A stretch of DNA of 62,806 nucleotides from Acidobacteriaceae bacterium (lineage in GTDB: Bacteria; Acidobacteriota; Terriglobia; Terriglobales; Acidobacteriaceae): assembly GCA_030041955.1 (NCBI GenBank), contig JASIAO010000105.1:1-62806 (forward strand). The letters are read 5' to 3'. Under the pieces are notes generated by a model. The model did not search any database. It was not told where the DNA came from and saw nothing but the letters and a program-made list of their open reading frames with translations. The position numbers were made by a program, and so were the translations under genes. Shown one piece after another: positions 8,563 through 43,139 of the stretch (the stretch's first letter is position 1; the number at the start of each line of letters is the position of its first letter).

Positions 8563-8772
8563 CTACCGCGATGCGGAAGCTGGCATCGTGGGCAGGCCGA
8601 TCCACCTGAAGACCGCCATCGCCGGGCACCAATTGGTGAAACCGGACTGGAAAAGGTTCACTCCGACAAAGACGGTGAGCCAGAGCCAGTAGCCGGAAAC
8701 CCAGTGGGCCAGAGCCAGCGAGACCAGAACGATTACTCCGGCAAGCAGACGAACAGCGCGTTCAACCGTCAC
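8563..8772 (-). CDS. DUF2892 (YgaP-like) small membrane protein
   Basis: 69 aa, ending ..FVGVNLFQSGFTNWCPAMAVF.., the DUF2892 signature. The GTG start overlaps the RND stop (GTGA). AGGAGG lies 7 nt upstream. Confidence 0.6.
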   Translation of the reverse strand: MTVERAVRLLAGVIVLVSLALAHWVSGYWLWLTVFVGVNLFQSGFTNWCPAMAVFRWIGLPTMPASASR

Positions 8773-21746: not shown

Positions 21747-21762
21747 TGTGACGTGAATCACA
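21747..21762. promoter_or_regulatory. CRP/FNR-type palindrome TGTGA-CGTGAA-TCACA (site 1 of 5)
   Basis: Perfect TGTGA-N6-TCACA in the gap between the hyhL 3' end and the Zn-ribbon gene. It overlaps a second dyad GTGACG..CGTCAC. Confidence 0.45.
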
Positions 21763-23227: not shown

Positions 23228-24012
23228 AGCGGTGCTTTCTCCAGCTTCTCCGCGGCGGAACGGAACTCCTCGGACCCGCCTGCGAATCCGTTGAGTAGTC
23301 TCAGCGTTTCGGCCCGCGAAACGCCTCTGGCCATAAGGTTCTGACAGAGCGAATCCGGGTTGGCGCTCTCCATGGGTCCGTAACAGCCGAAGCAGCCACG
23401 ATGGAAGCTGGGACACAAAGCTCCGCATCCAGCCTGAGTGATGGGACCGAGACAGGCAACTCCGGCGGAGACCAGAACACAAACGGTTCCGCTGCGTTTG
23501 CACTCGACGCACACCGAATATCGGGGCAGCTCGGGGGCTCGACCGATCAGCAGCGCTGTGAGCACATCCAGCAACTGCCGCCGCGAGATCGGGCAGCCAC
23601 TGATGGCAAAATCCACCGTCACATGCGCTGCGACCGGCGTCGATTGGGCGAGGGTATGGATGTATGAGGGATTAGCGTAGATCGCCCGCGTATATTCCTC
23701 CACGTCCGCCGTGTTGCGCAGCGCCTGGATGCCGCCGGCATTCGCGCAGGCGCCGAGGGTGATCAGGGTCTGTGAGTTTCTGCGAATCTCGCGTAGGCGC
23801 TGCAGGTCGGTTTCGGTGGTAACCGACCCCTCCACCAGCGCCACATCGTAGGGTCCATCGAGATCTTGCGAAGTTGCCTCGGGGAAATAGCAGATCTCCA
23901 CCTGGTCCGCGATGTCGAGGAGCTCATCTTCGAGATTCAGCAACTGCAACTGGCAGCCGTCGCAGGAAGCGAGCTTAAAGATTGCCAGGCGCGGCTTTGC
24001 ATTCTCGGCCAT
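23224..24012 (-). CDS. hyhS: [NiFe]-hydrogenase small (delta) subunit, NuoB-like, no Tat signal
   Basis: MAENAKPRLAIFKLASCDGCQLQLL...LGACANAGGIQ. GGGAGGAG RBS. Cytoplasmic type. Confidence 0.85.
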   Translation of the reverse strand: MAENAKPRLAIFKLASCDGCQLQLLNLEDELLDIADQVEICYFPEATSQDLDGPYDVALVEGSVTTETDLQRLREIRRNSQTLITLGACANAGGIQALRNTADVEEYTRAIYANPSYIHTLAQSTPVAAHVTVDFAISGCPISRRQLLDVLTALLIGRAPELPRYSVCVECKRSGTVCVLVSAGVACLGPITQAGCGALCPSFHRGCFGCYGPMESANPDSLCQNLMARGVSRAETLRLLNGFAGGSEEFRSAAEKLEKAPL

Positions 24013-24869
24013 CAGAACTCCTCCCTTCCAAAGAACGGTTCGATTGCAGAGAAGCGAAACACAGGCCCCTGTTTGCAAATAAAGACCGGACCAAGCTGGC
24101 AATGTCCGCAAAAGCCGATGGCGCATTTCATGTTGCGTTCCATCGAAACGTAAATTGCCTCTTTGGGAATGCGCCGGGCCATGGCCTCATAGATTACGAA
24201 GCGCAACATGATCTCCGGGCCGCAGGAGAACACCAGCGTCCTGCGGTGGTCGAGCCGCGTCCGATAGAAGGCCATGGGGATGACGCCAACCTGACCCTTC
24301 CAGGTTTCGTCGGCGCGATCCACGCTGACGAACATCTCAATTCCGCCGTCTTGCCAGTTCTCGAATTCGCCTGTGTAGAGCAAGTCCTGAGGGGTGCGGC
24401 CGCCGTAGAGAACCAGCACGCGACCGAAGCGATCACGGTGGTGCAATGTTTCCAGGATGACCGGCCGGAGCGGCGCCAGGCCGATTCCACCGGCGACGAT
24501 CATCAGGTCCTTGCCTTCGGCCAGCTGCATCGGCCAGGGATTGCCGTATGGCCCGCGCAGCCCGACTACGTCTCCAATCTTCAGGCGCCCGATGGCACGC
24601 GTCACACTGCCGGCATAGCGAATGGTGTGCTCCATGACCCTGGGTGTGCCGGGATCGGAGCAGATAGAAATGGCGACTTCGCCGAACCCGGGCAGGCAGA
24701 TCATGTTGAACTGCCCGGCGGCGAAGCCGAGCGGCGCATCGGGATCGGTGTATTCGAGCGAGAACGTGGAAATGCCGTAGGCCTCCGGACGAATCGCACG
24801 TACAACCGCAGGGCGCGGCAGCATTGGATCCATCATCGTAACTGGCTCGACCATGGTTACCTGGCTCAT
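24012..24869 (-). CDS. hyhG: Hydrogenase gamma subunit: FAD/NAD(P)-binding oxidoreductase with C-terminal 2Fe-2S motif
   Basis: FNR-like fold (GQFNMI.., MIVAGGIGLAPL) and C-terminal CAIGFCGHCQLG. ATGA overlap with hyhB. Confidence 0.85.
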   Translation of the reverse strand: MSQVTMVEPVTMMDPMLPRPAVVRAIRPEAYGISTFSLEYTDPDAPLGFAAGQFNMICLPGFGEVAISICSDPGTPRVMEHTIRYAGSVTRAIGRLKIGDVVGLRGPYGNPWPMQLAEGKDLMIVAGGIGLAPLRPVILETLHHRDRFGRVLVLYGGRTPQDLLYTGEFENWQDGGIEMFVSVDRADETWKGQVGVIPMAFYRTRLDHRRTLVFSCGPEIMLRFVIYEAMARRIPKEAIYVSMERNMKCAIGFCGHCQLGPVFICKQGPVFRFSAIEPFFGREEF

Positions 24870-25993
24870 CGTGCCCCCGCTGTCCGGAGCCTGTTCAGCT
24901 CTTCGGTGATATCGATGCCCACGGGACACCACGCAATGCAGCGGCCGCATCCCACGCAGCCGGAACGCCCGAACTGGTCGATCCATGCCCCGAGCTTGTG
25001 GGTCATCCACTGGCGAAAGCGAGACTTGATGGTTGGCCGGCTGTTGCCGCCATGCACGTGGGAAAAGTCGAGAATGAAGCAGGAATCCCACACGCGCGTG
25101 CGCGTCGTGCGATTTCCGTTCAGATCGCTGTGGTCTTCGACGGTGGAACAGAAGCAGGTCGGGCAGACCAGCGTGCAGTTCGCGCAGGAAAGGCAACGTT
25201 CGGCGATTGTGTCCCAGTAAGGATGGTCGATTCTCTCGTAAAGCAACTGAGGCAGATCGCTGGTCGTCACCTGGCGCTGGATCAGGCGTTCGGTGCGCTG
25301 CGTGACCTGCGCGGCGCGGCCAAGGTCAAAGGCGCTGGCCGGTTGCCAGTCGATGCCCGCAAGAGCATTGGAGCCGGCCTCCGAGCCGATCTCCATTACA
25401 AATGAATCCGGAAGTTCCGTTAATGCGAGGTCGAATCCGGAGCGCACGTGCGGGCCCGTGCTCATGGACGTACAGAAGCAGGTCGACGCCGCAGTGCTGC
25501 AATTGACGGCAAGCATGAAAACCCTCTGGCGACGGTGCGCATAATGAGGATCGCCAATCGTTCCATTAACGAACACCTCATCCTGGAGGGCGATGGCATG
25601 CAGATCGCACGACTTCACCCCGATAAAGGCAAAGGGCGGCGAATCGTCTGACGCTGGAGTGAAGATCCAGCCGTCACCGTTTCTCCTCGCAGTCAGCAAA
25701 TCGGAGCGCGCCGGAAAGAGGTAACGCTTCCACGAATCGGGCCCGACCGTGCACGCAAAATAATCGGCAGAGTGCGTTGGCAGAAGTCGCGAATTTCCAG
25801 CTTTCTGGTCGAGCAACCGCCCGATCGGAAGCTCGGAAATCTTTTCGAGCGTGCCGAGAATCACGCTGCCATCGCGCACAGTCGGACCGATCAGGCGGAA
25901 GCCGCTGGCCCTCAGATTGTCCAGCACCTGCTGCAGCGTGGGTTTAGGGAAGATCACCGTTGCGGAAACCCGGGGCGTGGGAGAACCGGCCAT
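24866..25993 (-). CDS. hyhB: Hydrogenase beta subunit: 4Fe-4S dicluster protein
   Basis: CLSCANCTLVCPTCFC and CVGCGRCIAWCP ferredoxin motifs. First gene of the four-gene operon. Confidence 0.8.
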   Translation of the reverse strand: MAGSPTPRVSATVIFPKPTLQQVLDNLRASGFRLIGPTVRDGSVILGTLEKISELPIGRLLDQKAGNSRLLPTHSADYFACTVGPDSWKRYLFPARSDLLTARRNGDGWIFTPASDDSPPFAFIGVKSCDLHAIALQDEVFVNGTIGDPHYAHRRQRVFMLAVNCSTAASTCFCTSMSTGPHVRSGFDLALTELPDSFVMEIGSEAGSNALAGIDWQPASAFDLGRAAQVTQRTERLIQRQVTTSDLPQLLYERIDHPYWDTIAERCLSCANCTLVCPTCFCSTVEDHSDLNGNRTTRTRVWDSCFILDFSHVHGGNSRPTIKSRFRQWMTHKLGAWIDQFGRSGCVGCGRCIAWCPVGIDITEELNRLRTAGAR

Positions 25994-26213: not shown

Positions 26214-26229
26214 AGTGATACAGGTCACT
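26214..26229. promoter_or_regulatory. CRP/FNR-type palindrome AGTGA-TACAGG-TCACT (site 2 of 5)
   Basis: The full dyad is AAGTGA-N6-TCACTT (26213-26230). It lies about 229 nt upstream of the hyhB ATG and about 94 nt upstream of the 26315 gene. AGGTCACTT also occurs at 26162-26170. Confidence 0.4.
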
Positions 26230-26771: not shown

Positions 26772-27752
26772 TCAATCAAGACGCGTGAATTTCGCTGGGA
26801 CATTCTCGAAGTCGGAGCGTCCGAGGCCGCGTTCTTCCGCCAGCTTCAGCCACAGCAAGGAATCGCTCTCCAGGTTCCAGAAGGCTTTGGCTGCGTATGC
26901 GTCCAGAGCGACGGGGTCGGTGCCCGCGATCAGCGTCTTTTTCAGCGCGACATCCTCCGGGTTGCCCCCGGTGGGGCCATTCCGCAGCAGCACGCGGTAG
27001 CAGTCGATCAGAGTCAGACTGGGCAGCATGAAGGCAGCCAGATCGACGAGGCTTTGGTGAATCTGCTGATGCAGCCTGTTCCGCTGGCCGCCGAGGATGC
27101 CGTACCAGTTCTTAAAGCCGAGCGTGACGCCGGTTAGCCCGTGATGCTTGGCAATGGGGATGTTGATGAGCTTATCGGCCTCGAGGAATGGCTCGAAGAC
27201 GGGCCAGCTTTGCAGAACAACGCCGCCGAGATCGACTTCGCGGAAACGCGCGGGATCGGGAAGGATGACTTCGGCCCCTTCGACACTGGCCGCGGCCTGA
27301 ATGCCGGAGCGGCGAAAACAGCGCTCGGCTTCGTTGCAGCTCACGTCGGTGACAACCACGCGCCCGGCGCCGGCCTGCCGGCACTGGCGAACCACTTCGG
27401 CGACAATGTCGGGATTTGTATTGGCCGCCTGTTCCGGGGTGCGGTCCCAGGCGATGTTGGGCTTGAGAACAACAACGTCATTGCGCGCGATGAAGCGGCT
27501 GATGCCTCCGAGGTCGACGAAGGCCTGGCGAACCAGAGCGCGGGGATCGTCGCCCTGGACCACCACCATCTGAGGAAGCGCGACGCTGGCCGGAACCGTG
27601 TGATCGCGCTTCGCGTATGCGGCGGCGGTGGCAACGGGGCGCGTGCTGCGCTCCGCAAGCCAGAACGCCGCTCCAGCAGTAACCGCTCCTGCTCCGGCAA
27701 CACGCAAAATCTGCAGCATCGCTTCGCGTCGGGTAATGTGGGTATCGGACAT
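26772..27752 (-). CDS. DUF362 domain protein with Tat-type signal peptide
   Basis: ATG at 27752 gives MSDTHITRREAMLQILRVAGAGAVTAGAAFWLA. The DUF362 core follows (VVLKPNIAW...INIPIAKHH..TGVTLGFKNWYG). Confidence 0.75.
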   Translation of the reverse strand: MSDTHITRREAMLQILRVAGAGAVTAGAAFWLAERSTRPVATAAAYAKRDHTVPASVALPQMVVVQGDDPRALVRQAFVDLGGISRFIARNDVVVLKPNIAWDRTPEQAANTNPDIVAEVVRQCRQAGAGRVVVTDVSCNEAERCFRRSGIQAAASVEGAEVILPDPARFREVDLGGVVLQSWPVFEPFLEADKLINIPIAKHHGLTGVTLGFKNWYGILGGQRNRLHQQIHQSLVDLAAFMLPSLTLIDCYRVLLRNGPTGGNPEDVALKKTLIAGTDPVALDAYAAKAFWNLESDSLLWLKLAEERGLGRSDFENVPAKFTRLD

Positions 27753-27786
27753 ATTCTTCACCGTCCCTCTGGTGTTGTCCTGCTCT

Positions 27787-28260
27787 TCAGAGCCGCCCCT
27801 CGATGCCATGAGCCAGGGCCAGCAGAGCGTCAGCGGGTGCCGGCTCGTACGTTGTGATCCTGACCAGCGTGGGTCCTTTGCGAAAAACCACGCTCTGCAA
27901 GTAAATCCGTCCGGCATCACCCAGCGGCGCCGTCTGGCCTGAAGCGGGTTCGTCATCGAGAATCTTCTTTGCCCCCGTCGCGGTCTTCATGGTGTATACG
28001 TCCACCACAGCTTCCAGCTTTCCCTGGAATTTGTAATCGGACGTCGCTGCGGAGACGACCCCCGCACCGATATACTCGTCCGCACCGCCGTCGAGGTATT
28101 GCCACAAGGTGTCAGCGGTGTAAGTGCGTGTTGGGCCGGTTTTCTCCCATCCAGAGACCAGACCCGAAGAAGGGAACGGATCGGCGGCCTTTCTCCTGCA
28201 ACCCGCTGCGGCACTCACGGCGACAATCAATACGCCAATACAAATCCATCTTGTCTTCAC
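27787..28260 (-). CDS. Lipoprotein of unknown function
   Basis: The GTG start overlaps the polyferredoxin stop (GTGA). The lipobox is VKTRWICIGVLIVAVSAAAGC. The GWEKTGPTRTYTADTLWQYLDGGADEYIG motif recalls an uncharacterised DUF family that I cannot name with certainty. Confidence 0.6.
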   Translation of the reverse strand: MKTRWICIGVLIVAVSAAAGCRRKAADPFPSSGLVSGWEKTGPTRTYTADTLWQYLDGGADEYIGAGVVSAATSDYKFQGKLEAVVDVYTMKTATGAKKILDDEPASGQTAPLGDAGRIYLQSVVFRKGPTLVRITTYEPAPADALLALAHGIEGRL

Positions 28261-29918
28261 GATTGCGCCTTTTCCTTTCTTCGAGTGAGCAGAATCTGGT
28301 TGCTGGGCGATCGGCTCTCCCCGATGCTGGTGACATAAACAGCCGGATGCTCCTGGAGGGGGCAGGCATATTCGCAGGCTCCGCAACCGACACACAGGCT
28401 GGGATCGACGTGTGGCTGCTTCAGCAGCTTGAGGTTGCCAGCGGCGTCCGGGACCTCCACTTGTTCGAGATCAATGGCCTTGGGCGAGACCGGGCACCAT
28501 TCTTCGCAGACCACACAATCGGTGGCCAGTGCCCAGGGCAGGCAACGGCTGCGATCATGGAAGGCTGTGCCCAGGCGCACGGGCTGCGAGTTCTGCTGGC
28601 CGACGCCGACTACCCAGCCCTTTTCGCGGGGCGTGATGTTCCAGATGGCGCCGGTCGGACAGACTTCGGAACAGAGAACGCAGCTTGGCTCGCAATAGCC
28701 GATGCGCGGCGCCAGTACCGGCGTCCACAGGCCTTCCAGGCCCGCTTCGGCGAAAGCGGGCTGCAGCGCATTGTTGGGGCAAACCTTCATACACTCGCAG
28801 CAGCGAATGCAGCGGCCGAGGAACTCCGTTTCCTCGAGTGCGCCGGGCGGGCGGATGAGATGCTCGTTCCGGCTCCTGCCCATTGCCGTTTCGGCGCGCA
28901 GCAGGGGGACTGCGGACAGCCCGGCAGCCAGACCAGCCAGAGCTTTGCGCCGCGGCAGATTCGGGCCCGCGACTTCAGCTCGCTTTCGGAAGAACCGGAA
29001 TCGCAGACTGTGTTGGGGGCAGACGTCGACACAGTTCAGGCACAGGAGGCATTCGGCCTTGTGCCAGGGCGCGGTTCCGATGGGATCGTCGCCTCCCTGG
29101 CAGTGCAGCAGACAGCGATTGCAGTTGTCGCAGCTTGCAGCCTCCTTATGCAGACCGAGGATCGACCAGCGCGCGGCGAAGCCGAGCAGCGCCCCCAAGG
29201 GACACAGCGCGCGACACCAGAACCGCGTTACGCGCAGGTTGAGGGCGAGCAGGACGATCAGGATCAGGCCCAGCAGCGCGCCCAGTTGGAAATGCGGCTG
29301 CCGGAAGTTCAGGACCGTCGCGCTCAGAACTGCGTGAAGGATGGCGGCCGGCGCACGTACTGCGCCGATGGGACTGTGTTCCAGTGGCGTGAGTGCCGCA
29401 TTGGCCGCGTAGTTGAAGGCGGGAAGGATCGACAGCGTCAGCGAACGCACCAGCAGGCTGAAGGGATCGAACCAACCGGCAATTGCGCTGCCGCAAAGGG
29501 CCGCTGCCAGAAGCGCGACCAGAATCGCATACTTGGTTCGCTGCCACGGTTTGTAGCGGTTGGATTCGATCCACTGCCGGCCGCGCTTGCGTTCGGATTG
29601 GAGATTCCCAAAGAAGTGGTGGACGGTGCCTATCGGGCAAATCCAGCCGCAGAAAAAGCGGCCCAGGAACATGACCGGCAGAACTATCAGCAGCGACCAT
29701 GCCAGGCCGCGATAGAGAGCGTGCGTCGCAAGAGCATTTACGAGCGCCGCCAGCGGATCAAACTCAAAAAAGAGGCGAACCGGCCAACGCATCTGTATTT
29801 CGCCCGTCGCGCCAGTGGCACCGCGAAATCCAGTCCTGACAAGAAGCAACAGGAAGAGGAGAAAAAAGAATACCTGCGACGCGCGCCGCAGGTGGATAAG
29901 TCGAATCCTCACAAGCAT
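28257..29918 (-). CDS. Membrane polyferredoxin (NapH/MauN-like N-terminal TM domain plus multiple 4Fe-4S domains)
   Basis: The TM region carries CGWICPIGT and FWCRALCPLG motifs. Six CxxCxxCxxxCP-type clusters follow (CDNCNRCLLHC, CLLCLNCVDVCP, CIRCCECMKVCP, CVLCSEVCP, CVVCEEWCP, CVGCGACEYACP). The preferred start is ATG 29918 (MLVRIRLIHLRRASQVFFF). The raw ORF extends to a GTG at 30071. Confidence 0.8.
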   Translation of the reverse strand: MLVRIRLIHLRRASQVFFFLLFLLLLVRTGFRGATGATGEIQMRWPVRLFFEFDPLAALVNALATHALYRGLAWSLLIVLPVMFLGRFFCGWICPIGTVHHFFGNLQSERKRGRQWIESNRYKPWQRTKYAILVALLAAALCGSAIAGWFDPFSLLVRSLTLSILPAFNYAANAALTPLEHSPIGAVRAPAAILHAVLSATVLNFRQPHFQLGALLGLILIVLLALNLRVTRFWCRALCPLGALLGFAARWSILGLHKEAASCDNCNRCLLHCQGGDDPIGTAPWHKAECLLCLNCVDVCPQHSLRFRFFRKRAEVAGPNLPRRKALAGLAAGLSAVPLLRAETAMGRSRNEHLIRPPGALEETEFLGRCIRCCECMKVCPNNALQPAFAEAGLEGLWTPVLAPRIGYCEPSCVLCSEVCPTGAIWNITPREKGWVVGVGQQNSQPVRLGTAFHDRSRCLPWALATDCVVCEEWCPVSPKAIDLEQVEVPDAAGNLKLLKQPHVDPSLCVGCGACEYACPLQEHPAVYVTSIGESRSPSNQILLTRRKEKAQS

Positions 29919-30056
29919 GGATCGGAGATGCTCCTTTCCTGCCGGAGTGCAAGCGCGCCCTTGGACTGTGGCGAAAACGCAATGCGGCAAAGCGCGGGCA
30001 GCGCGTTCCCAGTCAATGCCCTGGTTCAAGGCTGGCTGGCGTTTCCATTCGCTGTC

Positions 30057-30072
30057 AGTGACCGCCGTCACC
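30057..30072. promoter_or_regulatory. CRP/FNR-type palindrome AGTGA-CCGCCG-TCACC (site 3 of 5)
   Basis: GTGA-N6-TCAC core in the divergent gap between the polyferredoxin operon (ATG 29918) and the SpeE-fusion gene (start 30161). Confidence 0.4.
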
Positions 30073-30160
30073 CTGGTCCCTCGCTGTGCCCATTCAAAAC
30101 AGGTCGAGACTGGCCCGAAGGAGACTAATGTGAAGGCGGAAACCCTTCGCGGAGGCTGCG

Positions 30161-32521
30161 GTGACCCTTCATTTCATCTCCGTTGCGCGCGTCAGGCCGG
30201 CCGCCATCGCGGCGAAGGCGGCTCCGCTACTCGTCGGATTCACTGCGGTCGTCGGGCAGATCGTACTCATGCGGGAAGTCATCATCCTGTTCAGTGGGAA
30301 CGAAATCTCGATGGGGATTGCACTCGCCGCCTGGCTCGTTTGGACGGCGGCCGGAAGCGGCCTTGCCAGCCGGATGCGAACAGGGCGCGTGAGCGCCCGC
30401 CATACGGTTGCGGCACTCCAATGCCTCGCCGGGGCCAGCCTGGTGCCGACCGTGTGGATGCTGCGCGCGGGAAGGGCTGCATTCCAGACGGTGCCGGGTG
30501 AGCTGATTGGCCCGCTACCGATGCTGATCACCACTCTTGTCTGTCTGAGTGTGTTTTGCATTCTCTCGGGGGGCCTCTTCTTGGCCGCCGCGCGCATGGT
30601 CCAGCAGGAGAGCGCTGTTTCGGAGCGAGTCGCCGTGAGCTGGGCTTATGTGCTGGAGGCCGCAGGGTCGGGATTGGGTGGGGTTCTGTGCAGCGTACTG
30701 CTGCTGCGCTTCTTCGGATCGTTCCAGATTGCGGGAATCGTCGCGCTCGTGAACCTGGGCGCGGCGGCGATCCTCTTTTTTCCACTCAAAGGCTGGAAGG
30801 TTGCGATTGCCGCGCTGGCTGTCGCGGCTGTGGCCATTCCCTGGGCGGCCTGGGTTGCGCACAGGCTGGACACGTCCGCGGAGCAGCGTCTGTGGCAGGG
30901 ATTCCACGTCGTGCAATCGCGGAACACGATCTATGGAAACCTGACTGTCGTCGCGACCGGCGATCTGCAAACGATTTACGACAATGGCGTGAAGCTGGCC
31001 AGCATTCCGGATGAGGCCGCAGCCGAAGAGGCCGTTCATTATGCGCTGCTGGAGCATCCTGCGCCGAAAAGCGTTTTGCTGATCGGGGGCGGCGCGAACG
31101 GCAGTGTTCAGCAGGCACTGCGACACCCATCCGTTCGGCGACTCGACTACGTTGAGCTCGATCCCGCGCTGGTGGAAATGTCTCGGCAGATTTCTCCCGG
31201 CTTCGCTCCTTCTCTCTCCGATGCACGCGTGCGGGTGCACATTGCGGATGCGCGGCTTTGGCTGAAGACGACCCCGGAACGGTTCGACGCCATCGTGGTC
31301 GATCTGCCGGATCCCGAGACCGCGCAGCTAAACAGGTTCTACACGGAGGAGTTTTTCCGCTCTGCTCGCGATCACCTCGCACCGGGAGGGATTCTCGGAT
31401 TTCAGGTGCACTCGTCGGAGGAAACCATCAGTCCGGAAATGGCCGATTTCCTGCGCTGCATCGACCGCACGGTACGCGAAGTGTTCCCCTGGGTCGCGAT
31501 CATTCCGGGCGACACGATGCATTTCTTCGCAACGGCGCAGCCAAATGTTGTTACGGAAGACCCGCGGGTTCTGATTGCGAGACTGCAAAGCAGGGGCCTG
31601 CAAACGCAGTATGTGCGGGAATATTTCATCCCCTTCCGGATGATGCCCGACCGCATGGCGCAGGTTCACGCGGTGCTGCAACCTTTGCCGGGAACTCCGG
31701 TCAATCGCGACTTCCGGCCGATTGCCTACTACTTCGATGCGGTCCTGTGGGGCTCCCAGTTCCGCTCGGGATTTTCTCGCGCTTTCGAAGCTGCGGCGCA
31801 GGTCCCTTTTGTCTGGCTGCTCGCAACCGTGGTCATCCTGCTCCTCGCCACTCTCGGCGCGGTGCGATCGGCCGAAAGACACAGGCCCCAGCGAACGGCA
31901 GCGCTGGCGTGCACTGCCCTGACCGGCTACACCCTGATGGCGCTGCAGATCCTCCTGCTGTTCTCGTTCCAGTCCGTGTACGGCTACGTGTATCACGAGC
32001 TTGCTGTGCTCATCGGTCTGTTCATGGCGGGGATTGGGCTGGGAAGCTGGCTCGCGATCCGGCGCATTGCCTGCGCTGATCCCGCTTCATTGATCCGCAC
32101 CGTTGCCGCAAATCAGTTTTTGCTCGCGGCGTCCGCACTGCTGCTGCTGCTGGTGGTTGCTCTGCTTGCACAACACCCTGGGACGCAGAGCGCGCTGTGG
32201 ATCGCGCAACTCGTCTTTCCTTTCCTGGCGCTGCTTTGCGGAATTCTGGGAGGGTATCAGTTTCCGCTGACGAACGAGATTTGCCTTCACGACGCGGTCA
32301 CCCCAGCGCGCACAGGGGTGGTTTACGCGGTGGACCTGCTCGGGGGCAGCGTGGGCGCATTGCTGTTGAGCGCCTACCTCATCCCGGTGTTCGGTTTTTG
32401 GAAAGCAGCATGGTTCACCGCGGCCGTGAGCCTGGCCCCGGCATTTCTGGCCGTATGGGCGGGCCGGGATACAACGATGGCGGCGGAGTTTACCGCTTCT
32501 CCCCAAACACAACAGCGGTAA
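30161..32521 (+). CDS. Polytopic membrane protein fused to a spermidine-synthase-like (aminopropyl/methyltransferase fold) domain
   Basis: 786 aa. By eye there are about 7 hydrophobic helices, then a SpeE-like core (VLLIGGGANGS..VELDPALVEMS..FDAIVVDLPDPETAQLNRFYTEEFF), then about 7 more helices. GTG start. Confidence 0.8.
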   Translation: MTLHFISVARVRPAAIAAKAAPLLVGFTAVVGQIVLMREVIILFSGNEISMGIALAAWLVWTAAGSGLASRMRTGRVSARHTVAALQCLAGASLVPTVWMLRAGRAAFQTVPGELIGPLPMLITTLVCLSVFCILSGGLFLAAARMVQQESAVSERVAVSWAYVLEAAGSGLGGVLCSVLLLRFFGSFQIAGIVALVNLGAAAILFFPLKGWKVAIAALAVAAVAIPWAAWVAHRLDTSAEQRLWQGFHVVQSRNTIYGNLTVVATGDLQTIYDNGVKLASIPDEAAAEEAVHYALLEHPAPKSVLLIGGGANGSVQQALRHPSVRRLDYVELDPALVEMSRQISPGFAPSLSDARVRVHIADARLWLKTTPERFDAIVVDLPDPETAQLNRFYTEEFFRSARDHLAPGGILGFQVHSSEETISPEMADFLRCIDRTVREVFPWVAIIPGDTMHFFATAQPNVVTEDPRVLIARLQSRGLQTQYVREYFIPFRMMPDRMAQVHAVLQPLPGTPVNRDFRPIAYYFDAVLWGSQFRSGFSRAFEAAAQVPFVWLLATVVILLLATLGAVRSAERHRPQRTAALACTALTGYTLMALQILLLFSFQSVYGYVYHELAVLIGLFMAGIGLGSWLAIRRIACADPASLIRTVAANQFLLAASALLLLLVVALLAQHPGTQSALWIAQLVFPFLALLCGILGGYQFPLTNEICLHDAVTPARTGVVYAVDLLGGSVGALLLSAYLIPVFGFWKAAWFTAAVSLAPAFLAVWAGRDTTMAAEFTASPQTQQR

Positions 32522-34001
32522 ACAGGAAGATATCGGTGTCGCTGTCCTTCCAGCACCCGGGGTGCATACCGGCTTTCATGCAGGTTTCTTCCAGGAACCG
32601 GGTGCGATCCCATTTGGCATCCACGGGAACCTGGGGCAGCAGGAGACCCTGGTATTCGCCATTCTTCATCAGCAGGCCGTGCTCACCGATCCTGATCTGT
32701 TGCAGGTCGAGGACTCGGCGCAGAGGAGAAAGAACGGAGATTTCGTATTGGAGCCGCGGCAGCTCGGACGCCGCGACCGGGCGAAATCGCGTGTCGCGCA
32801 GCGCGGCCAGCGTTGCCGTGTCGCGGACAGCCATATAAAGCGGCTTGATGGCTGAGGTGTAGCCGACACAGCCACGCAACTCTCCCGACTCTCTGAGCGT
32901 GACGAACACACCGCGCTCCTGATTGAGGTCATCGTCACCCGCTGGCGGCGGCTCGTACGGTTCCCCCTGGCGCACGGCGTACTCGACGGAGATGCGTGCG
33001 ATGGAGAGCAGCTGGTTCCTGTCCGCGGGCGACAGCGAGAAGAGCTGTTCGACCATCTGCCGCTCCCCGGTTTTCACCAGCGCAACCGCGCTGTATCCGA
33101 CGACCCGGGAGCGATCGCCGCTGGTATCTCCGGAATTGGCGTAGCGCAACACCTGAGCCTGGTCCGCTCCCATGCGCTCGGCGGCGATCATGGCGGCTAC
33201 GATCGGGGCCCCGCCACAGGCTTCCCAGACACGCGTCTGGAAGTTCTGGGACATGCTGAAGTAGTCCCACTCCTCGATCGCCTGCAGCGTCTTATGATCG
33301 ATTTTCTCTGCCTCGTCGTACGGGTGATAGTGGGACAGGTCGGAACTGGCGACGATCAGCGTGTCGCCATCGTGAATCAGCTTTGCCAGAGCCACGCCCA
33401 GCGCCCGGCTGCTTTCATAGTTCTGATCGCCCATGACAACGGGCACGAGCGTGAAGTTGCCCAGCACATGCTGCAGCCACGGCAATTCCACCTCCACCGC
33501 GTGCTCCGTGCCCTGAGGCGTCGGCAAGTGCCCACGATCGGAGAGACGGATCGAGGGGTTCGATTTGGCCAGTTTCCTCGCAAAGTCTTTGTCGACCGGA
33601 ACTGTCCCGAGCGGCGTGACATATCCATCGCCGTCGTAAACGGAGGTGAAATCGAAAGCTTCGAAATGCGATGGAGCAATGACGACCACGCGCGCATAGT
33701 GCCGGCCCCTGAGGGCGGCGTAAGTCCAGGCCGCAACCGGTCCGGAATAGGGATAGCCGGCGTGCGGCGCGACAACGGCGACGATGGAGCCATGGATCTC
33801 CGGCGGCGCGGCCTGCGCCAGCATGGCGTCCATCATGGCCGTGAGCGCTTTCGGGTCCGCCGGATAAAAGCTGCCCGCGACTCCAGCGGGCCGAAGCTTT
33901 TCGAGGTCAGCCGCCCACCCGGCTCGGACGGCCGGGATCGCTGCGATACCGAACAGCAGTGCTGTCATGAAACCACTTCCGATCCGCGTTCCGCGTTTCA
34001 T
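32490..34001 (-). CDS. amrB: AmmeMemoRadiSam system protein B (MEMO1-like) fused to protein A (AMMECR1 domain), with N-terminal Sec signal peptide
   Basis: ATG at 34001 (GGGGAGGG RBS) gives MKRGTRIGSGFMTALLFGIAAIPAVRA|GWA. The Memo motifs follow (AGSFYPADP, VAPHAGYPYSGP, SSDLSHYH), then AMMECR1 (GVFVTLRESGELRGCVGY...LLPQV). Confidence 0.85.
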   Translation of the reverse strand: MKRGTRIGSGFMTALLFGIAAIPAVRAGWAADLEKLRPAGVAGSFYPADPKALTAMMDAMLAQAAPPEIHGSIVAVVAPHAGYPYSGPVAAWTYAALRGRHYARVVVIAPSHFEAFDFTSVYDGDGYVTPLGTVPVDKDFARKLAKSNPSIRLSDRGHLPTPQGTEHAVEVELPWLQHVLGNFTLVPVVMGDQNYESSRALGVALAKLIHDGDTLIVASSDLSHYHPYDEAEKIDHKTLQAIEEWDYFSMSQNFQTRVWEACGGAPIVAAMIAAERMGADQAQVLRYANSGDTSGDRSRVVGYSAVALVKTGERQMVEQLFSLSPADRNQLLSIARISVEYAVRQGEPYEPPPAGDDDLNQERGVFVTLRESGELRGCVGYTSAIKPLYMAVRDTATLAALRDTRFRPVAASELPRLQYEISVLSPLRRVLDLQQIRIGEHGLLMKNGEYQGLLLPQVPVDAKWDRTRFLEETCMKAGMHPGCWKDSDTDIFLFTAVVFGEKR

Positions 34002-34024
34002 CCACGTACCCTCCCCGCGCGTGC

Positions 34025-35260
34025 TCAGACGTGCCACACCCCCGGAATGAGCTGCCCGCAGTAAGGGCAGGTTCCCTTGCGGATCAGCATCTGCGTTACT
34101 TCCAGCCCCATGCGCTGCACGAGGATGTGTCCGCACTTCGGGCAATATGTGCTTTCGGCAGGGTGGCCGGGCACATTGCCGATGTACACGTAGTGCAGTC
34201 CCTCCGCGTCGGCAATCTGTTTGGCGCGTTCCAGTGTCGGCACCGGAGTGATGGGAAGGTTCTTCAGAAGATATTCGGGATGAAACTGCGAAAAGTGCAA
34301 AGGAACGTCGGCTCCGACGTTGTTCCTGACCCACTGCGCCAGGCCGCGGAATTCTGCGTCGCCATCGTTCAGCGTCGGCACCACAAGATAAACGATCTCC
34401 AGCCATTTGCCGGTCTTGTGCAGCGTGACGATCGAATCGAGCACAGGCTTGAGCTGGCCGCAAACCACCTGCCGGTAATACGACTCGGAGAAAGATTTCA
34501 AATCGATCTTGACGGCATCCATCTTGCCGTACGCCGCTCGCAGCGCTTCGTCCTGGATGTAGCCGTTGGAAACAACAATGCTGCGGATGCCTGCGGCATG
34601 ACCGGCATCCGCCGTATCCATCAGGTATTCGATAAAGATCACCGGCTCGCTGTAGGTGTAGGCGATGGTGGGGCAGCTATATTGCGTTGCCAGCTGGGCG
34701 ACTCGTTGCGGCGGTGCGTAGTCTGCCGGCACCTGTTCCGGGCGCACCTGGGAGATGTCCCAGTTCTGGCAGAACTTGCAGTTGACGTTGCAGCCGGCTG
34801 TGGCCAGCGAGAGGGCGAGCGTACCGGGAAGATAGTGGAAGAAGGGTTTCTTCTCGATCGGGTCGATATGTGCGGCGCACACCCGCGAGTGCACCAGCGT
34901 GTAATAGGTCCCGCCGCGGTTCTCGCGAACCCCGCAATAGCCGCGCTCGCGATCGCCCACGCTGCATTCGCGCGGGCACAATTTGCACTTGATCCTTCTG
35001 TTCGGAAGCTTCTGGTAGAAGCGCGCTTCCACCGTGAACTGCGAGTCGTCCTGGTTCTGCGCAGCCGGTGACAGAGACATTGCGTCCAGAGGATGTGCCA
35101 TGGTGGAGATGGTTCCGGCGGCTCCCGCGCAGAGAGCGCAGCGCAGAAACGAACGCCGGTCAGGGAGACACGATGTGCCTGCGGAAGCGAATCTCTCGCT
35201 GTCGAGGAACCCCGCTCCCGCCAAACTTGAATCGGGCTGCAAATAATGTTCGCGTGACAT
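34025..35260 (-). CDS. amrS: AmmeMemoRadiSam system radical SAM enzyme with N-terminal twin-arginine (Tat) type signal
   Basis: The radical SAM cluster motif CNVNCKFCQNW and the upstream CKLCPRECSVGDRERGYCGVRENR segment are typical of this family. The N-terminus carries DRRSFLRCALCAGAAGTISTMAHP. GGAGG RBS lies 7 nt upstream. Confidence 0.85.
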   Translation of the reverse strand: MSREHYLQPDSSLAGAGFLDSERFASAGTSCLPDRRSFLRCALCAGAAGTISTMAHPLDAMSLSPAAQNQDDSQFTVEARFYQKLPNRRIKCKLCPRECSVGDRERGYCGVRENRGGTYYTLVHSRVCAAHIDPIEKKPFFHYLPGTLALSLATAGCNVNCKFCQNWDISQVRPEQVPADYAPPQRVAQLATQYSCPTIAYTYSEPVIFIEYLMDTADAGHAAGIRSIVVSNGYIQDEALRAAYGKMDAVKIDLKSFSESYYRQVVCGQLKPVLDSIVTLHKTGKWLEIVYLVVPTLNDGDAEFRGLAQWVRNNVGADVPLHFSQFHPEYLLKNLPITPVPTLERAKQIADAEGLHYVYIGNVPGHPAESTYCPKCGHILVQRMGLEVTQMLIRKGTCPYCGQLIPGVWHV

Positions 35261-35272
35261 CGCTCGCCTCCA

Positions 35273-36292
35273 TCACGCCAGGTCTGTCTCGACCCTCTCG
35301 ATTCGCTGCGGATCGTTGATGCCAAGACGATGCTGCGGGTCCGCCGCCGTGGCCAGATAGCGGGGGGCTCGCTCCTCGGCTTCGAGCGCCTTCAGTCCTT
35401 CTTCTGCCCGCTTGCGCTCGATCATCTGCCATCCGGTGGTGTCGAGGGCCACAGGATCCTGCGACGCCAGCAGAGCGTTGGGTTGCCAGCTGTATTGGGG
35501 CTTGTAAGCAGGTCCTCCCTCGTAGCACGCCGTGGTCGCGTCGCAGATGGACAGACGCATCCTGCTGCGGATTTCCGGCAGCATGTTCACATCCGCGATA
35601 TAGGGATCGCAGCCGTTGGGGTGGTATTTGTTGGGATTGTGGATAGTGCCGTACATGTTCTTGAGCGCGATGGTGACGCCCGCGCCATCGTGATCCTTCA
35701 GCACCGGAACGTTGATCAGGACGTCGCAGCGCTGCGTGAGAATCTTCGATAGCCGGCTGCCAACGCTGCCCCATGTTGCCAGATCGTCTTCGTAACCCAT
35801 CCGGTCAGTGCCGAAGCACTGGACCCGATTTCCCGCGATACAGACATGAAAGCCGGCGCGTTCCAGTTCATCGGTGTCGCGATCCCAGATCACGATGTCA
35901 GCAGCTCGGATTCCGGCTTGCTGCAGCCGCTCGCAAATCGCTTCGGCCAACCGCGGGCTGCCGGAAAAGCCGCGGCCACCCAGAGCGTTTACCTTCAGTC
36001 CAACCATTTGCCCCGGACGCACGATCTTCTTCCAGGCCTCGTCCGGGCGACTGACCCGGAGAAGGGTCTCCATCGTCCGGTCCAGCAGGCTCAGCATGCG
36101 TTGCGAATCCACCGTGGAGTCCGAGCCGCGCAATTGAGGATCCTGCGCAATGACCACCCTGGATCGGATCAGCGGGAGATTCTGTGCGCCAGCAGCGGAA
36201 TGGGAGATTCCGTCGCCCGCAGCGACAGCAACGGCACTTGCCAGGCAATTCTTCAGGAATCTTCTTCGCCCCGTGATGGGCTCCTGGCGCAT
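35273..36292 (-). CDS. DUF362 domain protein with Tat signal peptide
   Basis: MRQEPITGRRRFLKNCLASAVAVAAG is followed by the DUF362 core (LKVNALGG...INVPVLKDHDGAGVTIALKNMYG). First gene of the operon with amrS and the Memo-AMMECR1 fusion. Confidence 0.8.
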   Translation of the reverse strand: MRQEPITGRRRFLKNCLASAVAVAAGDGISHSAAGAQNLPLIRSRVVIAQDPQLRGSDSTVDSQRMLSLLDRTMETLLRVSRPDEAWKKIVRPGQMVGLKVNALGGRGFSGSPRLAEAICERLQQAGIRAADIVIWDRDTDELERAGFHVCIAGNRVQCFGTDRMGYEDDLATWGSVGSRLSKILTQRCDVLINVPVLKDHDGAGVTIALKNMYGTIHNPNKYHPNGCDPYIADVNMLPEIRSRMRLSICDATTACYEGGPAYKPQYSWQPNALLASQDPVALDTTGWQMIERKRAEEGLKALEAEERAPRYLATAADPQHRLGINDPQRIERVETDLA

Positions 36293-36446: not shown

Positions 36447-36462
36447 AGTGATGAGCGTCACA
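36447..36462. promoter_or_regulatory. CRP/FNR-type palindrome AGTGA-TGAGCG-TCACA (site 4 of 5)
   Basis: About 160 nt upstream of the DUF362-amrS operon start codon (36292). Confidence 0.4.
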
Positions 36463-36522: not shown

Positions 36523-37827
36523 TCAAGGAGACCTTCCCAGGCGCATGCGGCGCTCAGGATCGTTGGCCCGCGTCCCGGAAACGGGCGCGAACAGATGTTC
36601 GTAACGATTGTGTGGATTCCACAACATCCAGCCATCGCTTCCGAATTCTGTTGCGGCGCGAATCTGGCTGTGAACCGCAGCGGCATCGAACGCCCGCCGA
36701 TCGAAAGCATAGTCCCGAAATGCCTGAATCCATGGACGGAAGCGGTCTGCAGGCAGGTTGACGCGGCGCCGCGCGTTTTCGAGGGTCTGCAGGATCACCT
36801 CAGAAGGGTATGCGACAGGATTTCGATAATTGGGGATACCGTACTGGAAGCAGGACGGATAGAGCATCGGTGACACGTAGTCCACAATGTTAGCGATACG
36901 TTCAAGCTGCTGGCCGATCCCGGTATCATTCGCATTCCAGCACACATAGCCAAAGATATCGACAGCAAGGTACACATTGAATCTGGCAAGTTGACGCTTT
37001 GCCTCGTTCAGAAATCCCCCGATCGCTTCGATCCGCGCAACTTCCCCGGCCGCGCGCGCAAAGCGAAGTTGGCCGGCGAAATCCGGAAAGCGGACATAAT
37101 CGAACTGGATCTCGTCAAAACCTGCCTGTGCAGCCTCCCGAGCTATGGCAATGTTGTAGTTCCACACTTCGCCCTCGAATGGATCGGTCCATGCGAGGCC
37201 CTCGCGATCGCGATAGAGCTGCCCGTTGGCGCGGTGTACGGCCAGATCGGCACGGGCAGTAGCAAGGGGCGTGTCCTTGAAAACGACGATGCGGGCGATC
37301 ACGTAGACGCCTTCGCTGTGCAGGGTACCCACCAGGAATGCCAGGCTGGGAATGGTGGTGATCTGGCGCGCGCCATCTATCCTGGCAAGAGGTACCGCAC
37401 TGGGATAAGGAATGAGGCCGCGGTCCCCCTTAACGTCGATGACCAGCGAGTTGATAAAGCCCTGGTGGATCAATCTCAGAGCGGCGCTCCGAAGCGGTCT
37501 GGAGCCGATGCCGTAGACCGAGAGGTAAAGCGCTCGTGGCGTGAACGGCGCAAGAGGAAGCCTGCCACCAAGGGCCGCGACCTGAGCCGATGTGTAGCTC
37601 GCAGCGCGATAGCCGGGCGCGCGAACTGCGATCATCTGTGTTTCGCCCGCGACGCAGTAGAGACCTTCTACGTCCGCGGCGATCACCTGTTCTCCCACGT
37701 TAATGATGGCGGCTGGAATCCCGGTGCCGGTTGTGGCATCGACCACGCGCCCCCGGAAAGCACACGCGCCAGAGCAGCGAAATGAAACCGCAAGAGTCAG
37801 GGCGAAGCTGAGGATGGCGCTTCTCAT
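36523..37827 (-). CDS. Putative glycoside hydrolase-like protein (DUF4015 / GHL family), secreted
   Basis: Signal peptide, carboxypeptidase-regulatory-like N-terminal segment, then a TIM-barrel-like DUF4015 pattern (FDEIQFDYVRFP, SPMLYPS, WIQAF). Confidence 0.6.
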   Translation of the reverse strand: MRSAILSFALTLAVSFRCSGACAFRGRVVDATTGTGIPAAIINVGEQVIAADVEGLYCVAGETQMIAVRAPGYRAASYTSAQVAALGGRLPLAPFTPRALYLSVYGIGSRPLRSAALRLIHQGFINSLVIDVKGDRGLIPYPSAVPLARIDGARQITTIPSLAFLVGTLHSEGVYVIARIVVFKDTPLATARADLAVHRANGQLYRDREGLAWTDPFEGEVWNYNIAIAREAAQAGFDEIQFDYVRFPDFAGQLRFARAAGEVARIEAIGGFLNEAKRQLARFNVYLAVDIFGYVCWNANDTGIGQQLERIANIVDYVSPMLYPSCFQYGIPNYRNPVAYPSEVILQTLENARRRVNLPADRFRPWIQAFRDYAFDRRAFDAAAVHSQIRAATEFGSDGWMLWNPHNRYEHLFAPVSGTRANDPERRMRLGRSP

Positions 37828-38612
37828 GGCGTGGCCCTTTCGGCTGCGGGATGCAGGAGCCTGCTCAACGCCTCGCCTCGGTCTCTGTCGGAGACAGCGA
37901 TACGAGGGATTGCGAAGCGGTTGCCTCGTGTTCTGACGAGGCCGCCGGTGTAGGCAAAGGCAGCAATGTATCCAGCATGGGCCGCGGCCTGTTCCAGTTC
38001 CGGATCGACAATGCCAAAGGGCCAGGCCAGAAGGTTAACCTGAACGCCGAGCTGTTGTTCGAGCACTGCGCAGGAGTGGTTGAGCTGGAATGCGACGAAT
38101 GCCTGATAGTCTGCAGGGCTCCGGCGTGTTTTCTCCCGGTGAAAATTGGGGTGCCAGTAGGTATGCGACTGCACGTCAACGAGGCCGGAACGCTGCATTT
38201 CCCGGAGTTCGTCCCAGGTGAGGGCGTAGGAAGCTCTGGAAATCGCCGATGGATAGATGAAGAGGGTTACGGGAATCCGCTGCTGCCGGATGACCGGAAA
38301 CATCTCTGTGAATACGGAGCGATGACCGTCGTCCACGGTGATGGCTACGGCACCGGGCTCCGGCGGGCGCCCGTCCCGCACAAACTGTATGACCTCGGCC
38401 AGCGGCACGATTTTGTAACCATGTTCGGCGAGCCAGGCCAATTGACTTTTCAACGTTGAAGTTTTTACGGTTGTGGGCCCAGCTTCCTGCGGATTGAAGC
38501 GATGGTAGACAAGGACCGGCACCGCCACGGAATCGAGTTTGTCCTGTCCCGGATCCGACAAGGGCATCCCCATGCTGAACGCAGCAACGAGGATGAGCGC
38601 CCGACCCAACAT
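37824..38612 (-). CDS. Polysaccharide deacetylase (CE4, PgaB/IcaB N-terminal-like)
   Basis: Preferred ATG 38612 (MLGRALILVAAFSMG). VLVYHRF, ITVDDGHRS and QSHTYWHPNF are CE4 motifs. The stop overlaps the downstream gene start. Confidence 0.75.
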   Translation of the reverse strand: MLGRALILVAAFSMGMPLSDPGQDKLDSVAVPVLVYHRFNPQEAGPTTVKTSTLKSQLAWLAEHGYKIVPLAEVIQFVRDGRPPEPGAVAITVDDGHRSVFTEMFPVIRQQRIPVTLFIYPSAISRASYALTWDELREMQRSGLVDVQSHTYWHPNFHREKTRRSPADYQAFVAFQLNHSCAVLEQQLGVQVNLLAWPFGIVDPELEQAAAHAGYIAAFAYTGGLVRTRGNRFAIPRIAVSDRDRGEALSRLLHPAAERATP

Positions 38613-38935
38613 GCAGGCCTCAATCGGATCGGCTTCCAGTTCTGTTCTCCGATCGCACCCGCATCTTTGACGTTCAACTCCAGAGAAGCGAAGCGAGAGC
38701 AGGAATCGGGGGCGATTGCTAAAGTGCAGTGCTGCAGCAATCTCCAGCACATGATTCCATGGTCGAGTGCGAAGACTTTTGTCTCATCAAAAAAACAATA
38801 TCGACACCGGGCTGTTGCGCGCCAGCGGTGTCCTGCTATCGATCGCAGGCGAGACGACGCGGTCCGCAATCCGCGCCACGAATTCAATACCAACAGTTCA
38901 GCGCCCGGTCGCTTGGTCTCTGGTCAGCGGCGGCT

Positions 38936-43123: not shown

Positions 43124-43139
43124 TGTGATGGCCATCACA
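43124..43139. promoter_or_regulatory. CRP/FNR-type palindrome TGTGA-TGGCCA-TCACA (site 5 of 5)
   Basis: Perfect 18-nt dyad CTGTGATGGCCATCACAG (43123-43140) in the 1-kb gap between the SDR gene and phaA. Confidence 0.45.

Follow-up and report, generated by a model that had tools for sequence, protein, structure and literature searches.

We analysed a stretch of 62,806 nt from a soil bacterium of the Acidobacteriaceae (order Terriglobales; assembly GCA_030041955.1, contig JASIAO010000105.1, positions 1-62,806 of the forward strand), referred to throughout as the window. At 26772-36292 it holds seven contiguous genes that include the three families of the AmmeMemoRadiSam system: a radical S-adenosylmethionine (SAM) enzyme, AmrS, and a fusion of the Memo (AmrB) and AMMECR1 (AmrA) proteins. 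The closest homologs carry the names of Terracidiphilus, Candidatus Sulfotelmatobacter and Acidobacteriaceae metagenome-assembled genomes from peat. An earlier note on this DNA had described the seven open reading frames (ORFs); all were found at the coordinates it gave, and every family call passes in profile searches. Operon 1 comprises the first three genes listed here and operon 2 the polyferredoxin, DUF6599 and DUF362b genes, with the SpeE-like fusion between them on the opposite strand.

35273 to 36292, minus strand: DUF362a, with a predicted twin-arginine translocation (Tat) signal, first gene of operon 1 (PF04015, 83.8 bits)
34025 to 35260, minus strand: AmrS, the AmmeMemoRadiSam radical SAM enzyme, with a predicted N-terminal twin-arginine signal (TIGR04337)
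32490 to 34001, minus strand: Memo-AMMECR1 fusion (AmrB-AmrA), with a predicted Sec-type signal peptide (TIGR04336 and TIGR04335)
30161 to 32521, plus strand: SpeE-like fusion with 14 predicted transmembrane (TM) helices (PF01564 and NF037959)
28257 to 29918, minus strand, ORF extending to 30071: fused polyferredoxin of NapH-NapG type (Fer4_5 twice, partial NapH, NapG)
27787 to 28260, minus strand: DUF6599 lipoprotein (PF20244), its GTG start overlapping the polyferredoxin stop
26772 to 27752, minus strand: DUF362b, a second DUF362 protein with a predicted Tat signal (PF04015, 179.6 bits)
36448 to 36461: putative dyad of CRP/FNR type, 156 nt upstream of DUF362a, reading TGTGA-N6-TCACT on the minus strand
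30058 to 30071: putative dyad of CRP/FNR type, within the gap from which the polyferredoxin and SpeE fusion genes diverge

Most of the junctions that had been described could be read directly. The gaps of 12 and 23 nt in operon 1 each carry a GGAGG-type ribosome-binding site (RBS), the GTGA stop/start overlap of the polyferredoxin and lipoprotein genes is present (28257-28260), and the coordinates give a 32-nt convergent overlap of the SpeE fusion with the 3' end of operon 1 (32490-32521). This last overlap is also kept in many orthologs, where it measures roughly 40-110 nt (loci L001-L080; stop-to-stop ORF coordinates). The shared divergent gap between the polyferredoxin and SpeE fusion genes exists too but is wider than had been thought, at about 242 nt, since the polyferredoxin probably starts at ATG 29918, behind the RBS GGAAAGGAG, and not at GTG 30071; the dyad at 30058-30071 thereby falls inside the gap. 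The start of the Memo-AMMECR1 gene was likewise corrected, to ATG 34001 with GGGGAGGG ahead of it.

AmrS scores 386.3 bits against TIGR04337 (cut-off 220) and 52.8 bits against Radical_SAM (PF04055), and it has the cluster motif CNVNCKFC (CX3CX2C). The Memo-AMMECR1 protein scores 272.8 bits against TIGR04336 (Memo, cut-off 26) and 174.6 against TIGR04335 (AMMECR1, cut-off 99), so that all three families, when held against their curated HMM thresholds, lie above them. Among profile matches the enzymes most similar to AmrS are of the PFL-activase type, and a search of the PDB returned no solved structural relative of AmrS by sequence. In the search for AmrS representatives, two homologs (P0155, P0256) were found to be split by an intein with a LAGLIDADG homing-endonuclease domain.

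Signal peptides were judged by motifs and by conservation in relatives, and membrane sidedness also by the positive-inside rule. The twin-arginine motif of AmrS, DRRSFL(K/R)CAL, is present in all 120 close homologs, in which the residues ahead of it vary freely. A canonical Tat signal was seen in about 33 of 150 AmrS representative clusters, about a fifth (the 150 best, at 50% identity), and an RR motif in 112 of 120 matches to a profile of diverse Tat-type AmrS, whose sources, where named, are Aminicenantes, anammox Planctomycetota, Chloroflexota, Calditrichota, Armatimonadota and Pseudomonadota. Because the motif is kept in every close homolog and recurs in other diverse clusters, the predicted export signal of AmrS is a conserved feature and no product of chance or local oddity. 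The accessory proteins behave similarly: DUF362a begins with GRRRFLK (RR motif in 75/80 orthologs) and DUF362b with TRREAML (37/39), an RR motif was found in every AmrS-adjacent DUF362 protein of diverse loci whose N-terminus was readable, and the Memo-AMMECR1 orthologs have an N-terminus that is basic, then hydrophobic, and ends in a conserved small-x-small, (V/H)xA-type site. The DUF6599 protein (PF20244, 37 bits against a cut-off of 27) has the lipobox AAAGC, and most of its orthologs have a lipobox. The proposal that every soluble component carries an export signal is thus borne out at the level of prediction, with conserved signals in AmrS, DUF362a, DUF362b, Memo-AMMECR1 and DUF6599.

We then asked how widely the genes keep company, using one genome per species from a scan of Terriglobales (80 loci) and, outside this order, ten contigs and 80 metagenome loci obtained by a metagenome scan from a 10-sequence alignment. 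Co-occurrence of the families reaches well beyond this genome, into 80 Terriglobales species and other phyla. The run DUF362a-AmrS-Memo/AMMECR1 is present in 80/80 Terriglobales loci, with DUF362a directly upstream of AmrS in all; the 23-nt spacing of AmrS and the fused AmrB-AmrA gene in the window is one case of this general adjacency. The SpeE fusion is found in about 70 of the 80, mostly convergent and overlapping as in the window, and about 41 have the polyferredoxin and DUF6599 genes. These loci show at least four gene orders, the commonest being a single run of polyferredoxin, DUF6599, DUF362a, AmrS and Memo/AMMECR1 with the SpeE fusion convergent to it and DUF362b beyond; the split form is that of the window. 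There the genes immediately upstream of operon 1, on the same strand, encode a putative glycosyl hydrolase (DUF4015) and a polysaccharide deacetylase (36523-38750, minus strand), and in most orthologous loci it is the polyferredoxin and DUF6599 genes that occupy this place. In the cultured Occallatibacter riparius the order is DUF6599-DUF362-polyferredoxin-(aldo-keto reductase/Fe-S)-SpeE, convergent with DUF362-AmrS-Memo/AMMECR1. The aldo-keto reductase there, with Fe-S motifs, lies at 8709-9980 of locus L171 (CP093313.1) between the polyferredoxin and the SpeE fusion, and a pyruvate:ferredoxin oxidoreductase gene is a few kb off.

Outside Terriglobales, 59 diverse loci with a Tat-type AmrS had DUF362 in 30, the SpeE fusion in 30 and Memo in 31. 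When the count was confined to the 28 of these with at least 4 kb of flank on each side, the figures were 18, 16 and 16, and DUF362, the SpeE fusion or both were found in 24. The corresponding figures for 22 diverse loci with a signal-less AmrS were 2, 5 and 10. The tightest partners of Tat-type AmrS are DUF362 and the SpeE fusion, rather than Memo/AMMECR1. Gene orders in the diverse loci include DUF362-AmrS-SpeE, TatC-AmrS-SpeE-DUF362, SpeE-AmrS and AmrS-DsbD-SpeE, the last of which was seen in L089 and L124; the DUF6599 gene is linked in Aminicenantes-type loci as well (L082, L091, L102). On one 187-kb metagenome contig (L085, 9250-14541) tatC stands directly upstream of AmrS, the SpeE fusion and DUF362, and in an Armatimonadota-type locus (L088, 7858-10098) a triple fusion of GNAT acetyltransferase, Memo and AMMECR1 is convergent with DUF362-AmrS.

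The earlier note had the DUF362 proteins supply electrons, but as Fe-S electron carriers they find no support. Both window proteins are well above the PF04015 gathering cut-off of 24 bits, and an alignment of 33 AmrS- and polyferredoxin-linked members revealed invariant Lys, His and Asp residues (K100, K199, H201, K211, H224, D251, D279, D284) and no invariant Cys. Since no cysteine is invariant, DUF362 is not a carrier of the ferredoxin type, and its candidacy as an Fe-S electron carrier was rejected. In Pfam, DUF362 and the LarA N-terminal domain belong to the same clan (PMC11770544). Neither a single sequence nor the 33-sequence profile gave a significant match in the PDB, and an AlphaFold2 model of DUF362a, for which the alignment consisted of the two window paralogs only, had a pLDDT of 34 and was unusable. 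DUF362 may be a cofactor-bearing redox enzyme or the protein substrate of AmrS.

The SpeE fusion scores 97.8 bits against Spermine_synth (PF01564, cut-off 22.9) and 71 against the fused MFS/spermidine synthase family NF037959 (cut-off 40). Its AlphaFold2 model (pLDDT 80.8, pTM 0.82) has seven TM helices on each side of the SpeE-like domain, in agreement with the 14 claimed before; simple hydropathy counts over-split the helices and were used only alongside this model and an alignment-based profile. The order is six TM helices, TM7, the SpeE-like domain, TM8 and six more TM helices. Because TM1-6 aligns to TM9-14 (27% identity, E=0.001), the protein can be described as a 6+6 repeat with a helix-domain-helix insert in its central loop. 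In a 40-sequence alignment, positive-inside scoring gave about 22.7 Lys/Arg in the inside loops and about 4 outside, on which basis the SpeE-like domain is predicted to lie on the periplasmic face.

The nearest solved structures to this domain are genuine aminopropyltransferases at 20-27% identity, that of Thermus thermophilus SpeE being the closest. Given also its clear Spermine_synth domain, one could take the fusion for an ordinary membrane-anchored polyamine aminopropyltransferase that makes spermidine-type polyamines and has nothing to do with AmrS. We consider this very improbable. The protein is far below every SpeE equivalog cut-off (at best 199.5 bits against 472), and the acidic position of GGG(D/E)G, on which selection of decarboxylated SAM (dcSAM) depends, is lost, the window having GGGANG and the family V/A/I followed by N/S/G. 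The catalytic Asp of D-x-x-(D/E)-P is Asn in 25/40 orthologs and in 17 of the 17 readable among 38 distant homologs. The predicted periplasmic position of the domain and its linkage to AmrS, which is seen in many different gene orders and in a wide range of AmrS relatives from genomes and metagenomes, tell against the ordinary enzyme as well. The ribose-binding Glu and adenine-binding Asp are invariant, and we regard the domain as nucleotide-binding and probably non-canonical. The window protein itself keeps an Asp at the catalytic position (D381, 31301-31303), unlike most orthologs. In loci that pair a signal-less AmrS with an exported-type Memo-AMMECR1, the SpeE fusion is sometimes very long (1034-1307 aa).

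The polyferredoxin is a five-TM NapH-NapG fusion. It has Fer4_5 twice, NapH-like helices with the CX3CP motifs FFCGWICP and FWCRALCP, cytoplasmic ferredoxin motifs, and partial matches to NapH (residues 256-361) and NapG (residues 382-581), both below the equivalog cut-offs (92.9 bits against 269 for NapG, 88.7 against 234 for NapH). Ahead of the NapG-like domain is an internal twin-arginine segment, PRRKALAGLAAGLSAVPLL, with trailing arginines, and inspection of the sequence showed PRRKALAGLAAGLSAVPLLRAETAMGRSR and four CxxCxxCxxxCP-type motifs in the C-terminal domain. The earlier suggestion of a NapH-like electron conduit stands as regards the family, which is a NapH-NapG fusion, but as a regular part of the locus it stands in part only, the gene being linked in some half of the Terriglobales loci and seldom outside that order.

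Because this linkage is patchy, two adjoining but separate systems have to be weighed: a redox module of polyferredoxin, DUF6599 and DUF362, with DUF362 as the catalytic client, beside a DUF362-AmrS-Memo/AMMECR1 system, the two being neighbours by descent and sharing a regulator but no pathway. The polyferredoxin gene always adjoins a DUF362 gene, in Terriglobales, in diverse loci and in O. riparius; about 30 of the 80 Terriglobales loci have none within 10 kb of AmrS, and it is linked in only two of the 59 diverse Tat-AmrS loci; and the clients known for NapH-like modules are many and varied (PMC8238504). On the other side, the polyferredoxin heads a co-oriented run through DUF6599, DUF362a and AmrS to Memo/AMMECR1 in 34 Terriglobales loci, and in O. 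riparius it shares one co-oriented run with the SpeE fusion. The linkage outlasts at least four rearrangements, the same dyad stands ahead of both operons, and in other lineages NapH-like domains are fused directly to AmrS. With these observations in hand we judge separate systems to be improbable.

The fusions deserve closer description. Architectures were read by Pfam among diverse AmrS representatives and are as follows.

FMN_bind, Fer4_5, AmrS: P0141, P0171
DsbD_2, FMN_bind, Fer4_5, AmrS: P0158
DsbD_2, AmrS: P0144, P0169
Membrane anchor, FMN_bind, AmrS: P0168, P0176, with no TM helix between FMN_bind and AmrS
Anchor, CBM_11 or beta-propeller, AmrS
Anchor, AmrS, Memo, AMMECR1

In the NosR-like fusions the cytoplasmic CX3CP motif and AmrS are separated by one helix, with positive charges ahead of it. 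FMN_bind, NapH-like and DsbD are established extracytosolic electron-transfer modules, and the main text of the survey that defined them makes no mention of clients of the radical SAM, Memo, AMMECR1 or DUF362 families (Meheust et al. 2021, PMC8238504). An external AmrS supplied by a transmembrane electron module finds independent support in the fusions of this enzyme to NosR/NapH-like, DsbD-like and FMN_bind modules. Lineages other than Terriglobales use DsbD or FMN_bind modules in place of the NapH-like gene.

These fusions also bear on the more serious alternative, in which AmrS is a cytoplasmic maturase or activase that is exported afterwards. In the manner of the anaerobic sulfatase-maturating enzymes and the glycyl-radical activases, it would modify or load DUF362 or the unfolded Memo-AMMECR1 protein where SAM and reductant exist, and its Tat signal would reflect co-export or a single turnover of pre-bound SAM. 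The likeness of AmrS to PFL-activase-type enzymes, which act on proteins, fits this well, as does the near-constant presence of DUF362 as a neighbour. Tat exports folded proteins, and it is established that these carry cofactors and can travel as complexes; SAM, moreover, is known only in the cytoplasm. What keeps the maturase alive in our analysis is that in some lineages the membrane is predicted to separate AmrS from Memo-AMMECR1, among them those in which a signal-less AmrS accompanies an exported-type Memo-AMMECR1. Yet fused or linked transmembrane electron modules would serve little purpose if catalysis preceded export, and in the fusions AmrS sits after the last TM helix or straight after the extracytosolic FMN_bind domain. 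Each component, too, has a signal of its own, that of Memo-AMMECR1 being Sec-type. We therefore rate catalysis before export as rather unlikely, though it is the alternative that we take most seriously.

The window has five copies of the dyad GTGA-N6-TCAC where 0.65 would be expected; none of 100 shuffles reached five, and all five copies are outside probable genes (the copy at 30058 given the polyferredoxin start at 29918). The presence of the same dyad in both promoter gaps, as had been pointed out, was evident at 30058-30071 and 36448-36461, and both sites are conserved in orthologs. About 45 orthologous loci have it at the same place 5' of the polyferredoxin gene (consensus AAGTGATCTTGCTCACAGA), where it is non-coding because an in-frame TGA lies inside it, and split-type loci have it at a similar position upstream of DUF362a (L019, L028, L038, L040, L066, L070). 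Judged by its sequence and conservation, the dyad is a putative CRP/FNR-type site upstream of both operons. Two of the five copies, flanks included, are perfect TGTGA-N6-TCACA palindromes (21748-21761 and 43125-43138); both are intergenic, with a small ORF and a hemerythrin-domain gene downstream of one and a small ORF and a short-chain dehydrogenase gene downstream of the other.

A four-gene [NiFe]-hydrogenase operon that resembles group 3b adjoins the cluster (21923-25993, minus strand). Its large subunit matches NiFeSe_Hases, while the small, Fe-S and oxidoreductase-like subunits were judged by sequence only. A further copy of the dyad, at 26215-26228, is in the upstream gap of this operon, from which a shared regulon is suggested. 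No CRP/FNR gene was found in the window, either by TBLASTN with E. coli CRP and FNR as queries or by a Pfam search of candidate ORFs about 235 aa long. Between 25500 and 37500, Rfam gave no match at E<=1 and hence no SAM riboswitch, and a consensus scan for sigma-70 promoters and terminators did not rise above shuffled expectation.

Taking these results together, we favour, with moderate confidence, a reading of the locus as an extracytoplasmic version of AmmeMemoRadiSam with a transmembrane electron supply, a constant DUF362 partner and a periplasm-facing, SAM-related membrane protein. AmrS would be folded and loaded with its cluster and then exported by Tat. Its radical-SAM cluster would be reduced outside the cytoplasm by electrons that cross the membrane through the polyferredoxin, or, in other lineages, by a DsbD-like or FMN-binding module that is sometimes fused to AmrS. 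Together with DUF362, a member of the LarA clan that possibly bears a cofactor, and with Memo-AMMECR1, it would act on an envelope-side substrate or partner protein. The 14-TM SpeE-like protein would bring or present SAM, or a SAM-derived group, on the periplasmic side; this role is proposed because the nucleotide-binding residues are kept while the acidic residue that excludes SAM, and in the majority of relatives the catalytic Asp also, are lost. One CRP/FNR-type regulator would govern both operons and probably the [NiFe]-hydrogenase operon too, and the dyad shared with the latter suggests expression under reducing or anoxic conditions. A bolder version, in which the chemistry is extracytoplasmic radical-SAM chemistry and SAM itself is supplied by an MFS-like 12-helix transporter whose catalytically degenerate SpeE-like SAM-binding domain is periplasmic, is in our view possible but doubtful.

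Several points weigh against an extracytoplasmic AmrS of this kind. We know of no periplasmic SAM pool and no SAM exporter. Electrons at the level of quinol are far too weak for a radical-SAM cluster unless the NapH-like side is supplied by low-potential donors in the cytoplasm. The polyferredoxin is absent within 10 kb from somewhere between about 30 of the 80 Terriglobales loci and about half of them, and its linkage in the 59 diverse Tat-AmrS loci is confined to two. The partners are not always predicted in one compartment, because in some lineages the signals of AmrS and Memo-AMMECR1 do not match: in L130, L143, L145, L160 and L165 a signal-less AmrS is accompanied by a SpeE fusion and by a Memo-AMMECR1 with a signal or lipobox, and in L147, L151 and L158 a Tat-type AmrS by a Memo-AMMECR1 without a signal. 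Localisation throughout is a prediction from motifs, the positive-inside rule and architecture.

To our knowledge the need for SAM and a low-potential reductant has led to radical SAM enzymes being regarded as cytoplasmic. A large AmrS family spread over several phyla, with predicted export signals, electron modules and a putative SAM-binding membrane partner, challenges this cytoplasm-only assumption and implies a route across the membrane either for SAM or for a pre-loaded enzyme. If the bolder version is true, the locus would represent the first extracytoplasmic radical SAM machine and the first SAM-delivery route to the bacterial periplasm, and would give the Memo and AMMECR1 families an envelope-side role. 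The trio gains testable partners in DUF362, the SpeE fusion and DUF6599, a cultured host is available in Occallatibacter riparius, and the dyad points to a likely regulatory condition. Both human relatives, MEMO1 and AMMECR1, are linked to disease. Neither the three core families nor the polyferredoxin type is new, and Burroughs et al. reportedly surveyed Memo-AMMECR1-rSAM contexts in 2019 (JBC); of an exported AmrS, its conserved accessory set and the AmrS-electron-module fusions we found no description in the literature searchable here, which also gave nothing of relevance on AmmeMemoRadiSam, DUF362, fused MFS/spermidine synthase proteins or periplasmic radical SAM enzymes.

The base AmmeMemoRadiSam system is described as cytoplasmic and as made up of three genes, and is without established function. 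The window resembles it in having the AmrA, AmrB and AmrS families adjacent and above their cut-offs, with the CX3CX2C motif of AmrS, the PHAG and DLSH motifs of Memo and the LRGCVG motif of AMMECR1 retained. It differs in the predicted export signals on all parts, in the fusion of AmrA to AmrB, and in the added DUF362, 14-TM SpeE-like and DUF6599 partners and transmembrane electron module. Anaerobic sulfatase-maturating enzymes act before export, and both these and the glycyl-radical activases are cytoplasmic and without a signal peptide. AmrS is like them in its PFL-activase character and in having partners that, like sulfatases, are predicted to end outside the cytoplasm, whereas it differs from both in itself bearing a conserved Tat signal. 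The SpeE-like protein shares with the SpeE aminopropyltransferases and NF037959 the SpeE fold, including the N-terminal beta-hairpin domain, and the nucleotide-binding Glu and Asp; in the window, in contrast, the domain forms an insert between two six-helix repeats, has a predicted periplasmic location and belongs to a gene tied to AmrS, and in the window's family the dcSAM-selecting residue is lost and the catalytic Asp is mostly Asn.

The closest parallel for the polyferredoxin is that of MLMS-1 (Q1NSB0), a NapH-NapG fusion with Fe-S clusters on both sides of the membrane, which experiments showed to be Sec/Tat dual-targeted and whose last, twin-arginine helix exports a reporter in a Tat-dependent manner (Tooke et al. 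2017, PMC5449189). The window protein has in common with it four NapH-like TM helices, two CX3CP motifs, cytoplasmic ferredoxin motifs, an internal RR segment of low hydrophobicity with positive charges behind it, and a NapG-like domain that has four Cys motifs. It departs from NapGH in being no NapG or NapH ortholog, in having no nitrate reductase nearby, and in its proposed client, a radical SAM enzyme and/or DUF362. Set against the modular extracytosolic electron-transfer systems built on NapH-like, DsbD-like and FMN_bind/ApbE components (PMC8238504), the AmrS family is alike in having NapH-like, DsbD-like and FMN_bind modules linked or fused to AmrS, and the window differs in being without an FMN_bind domain.

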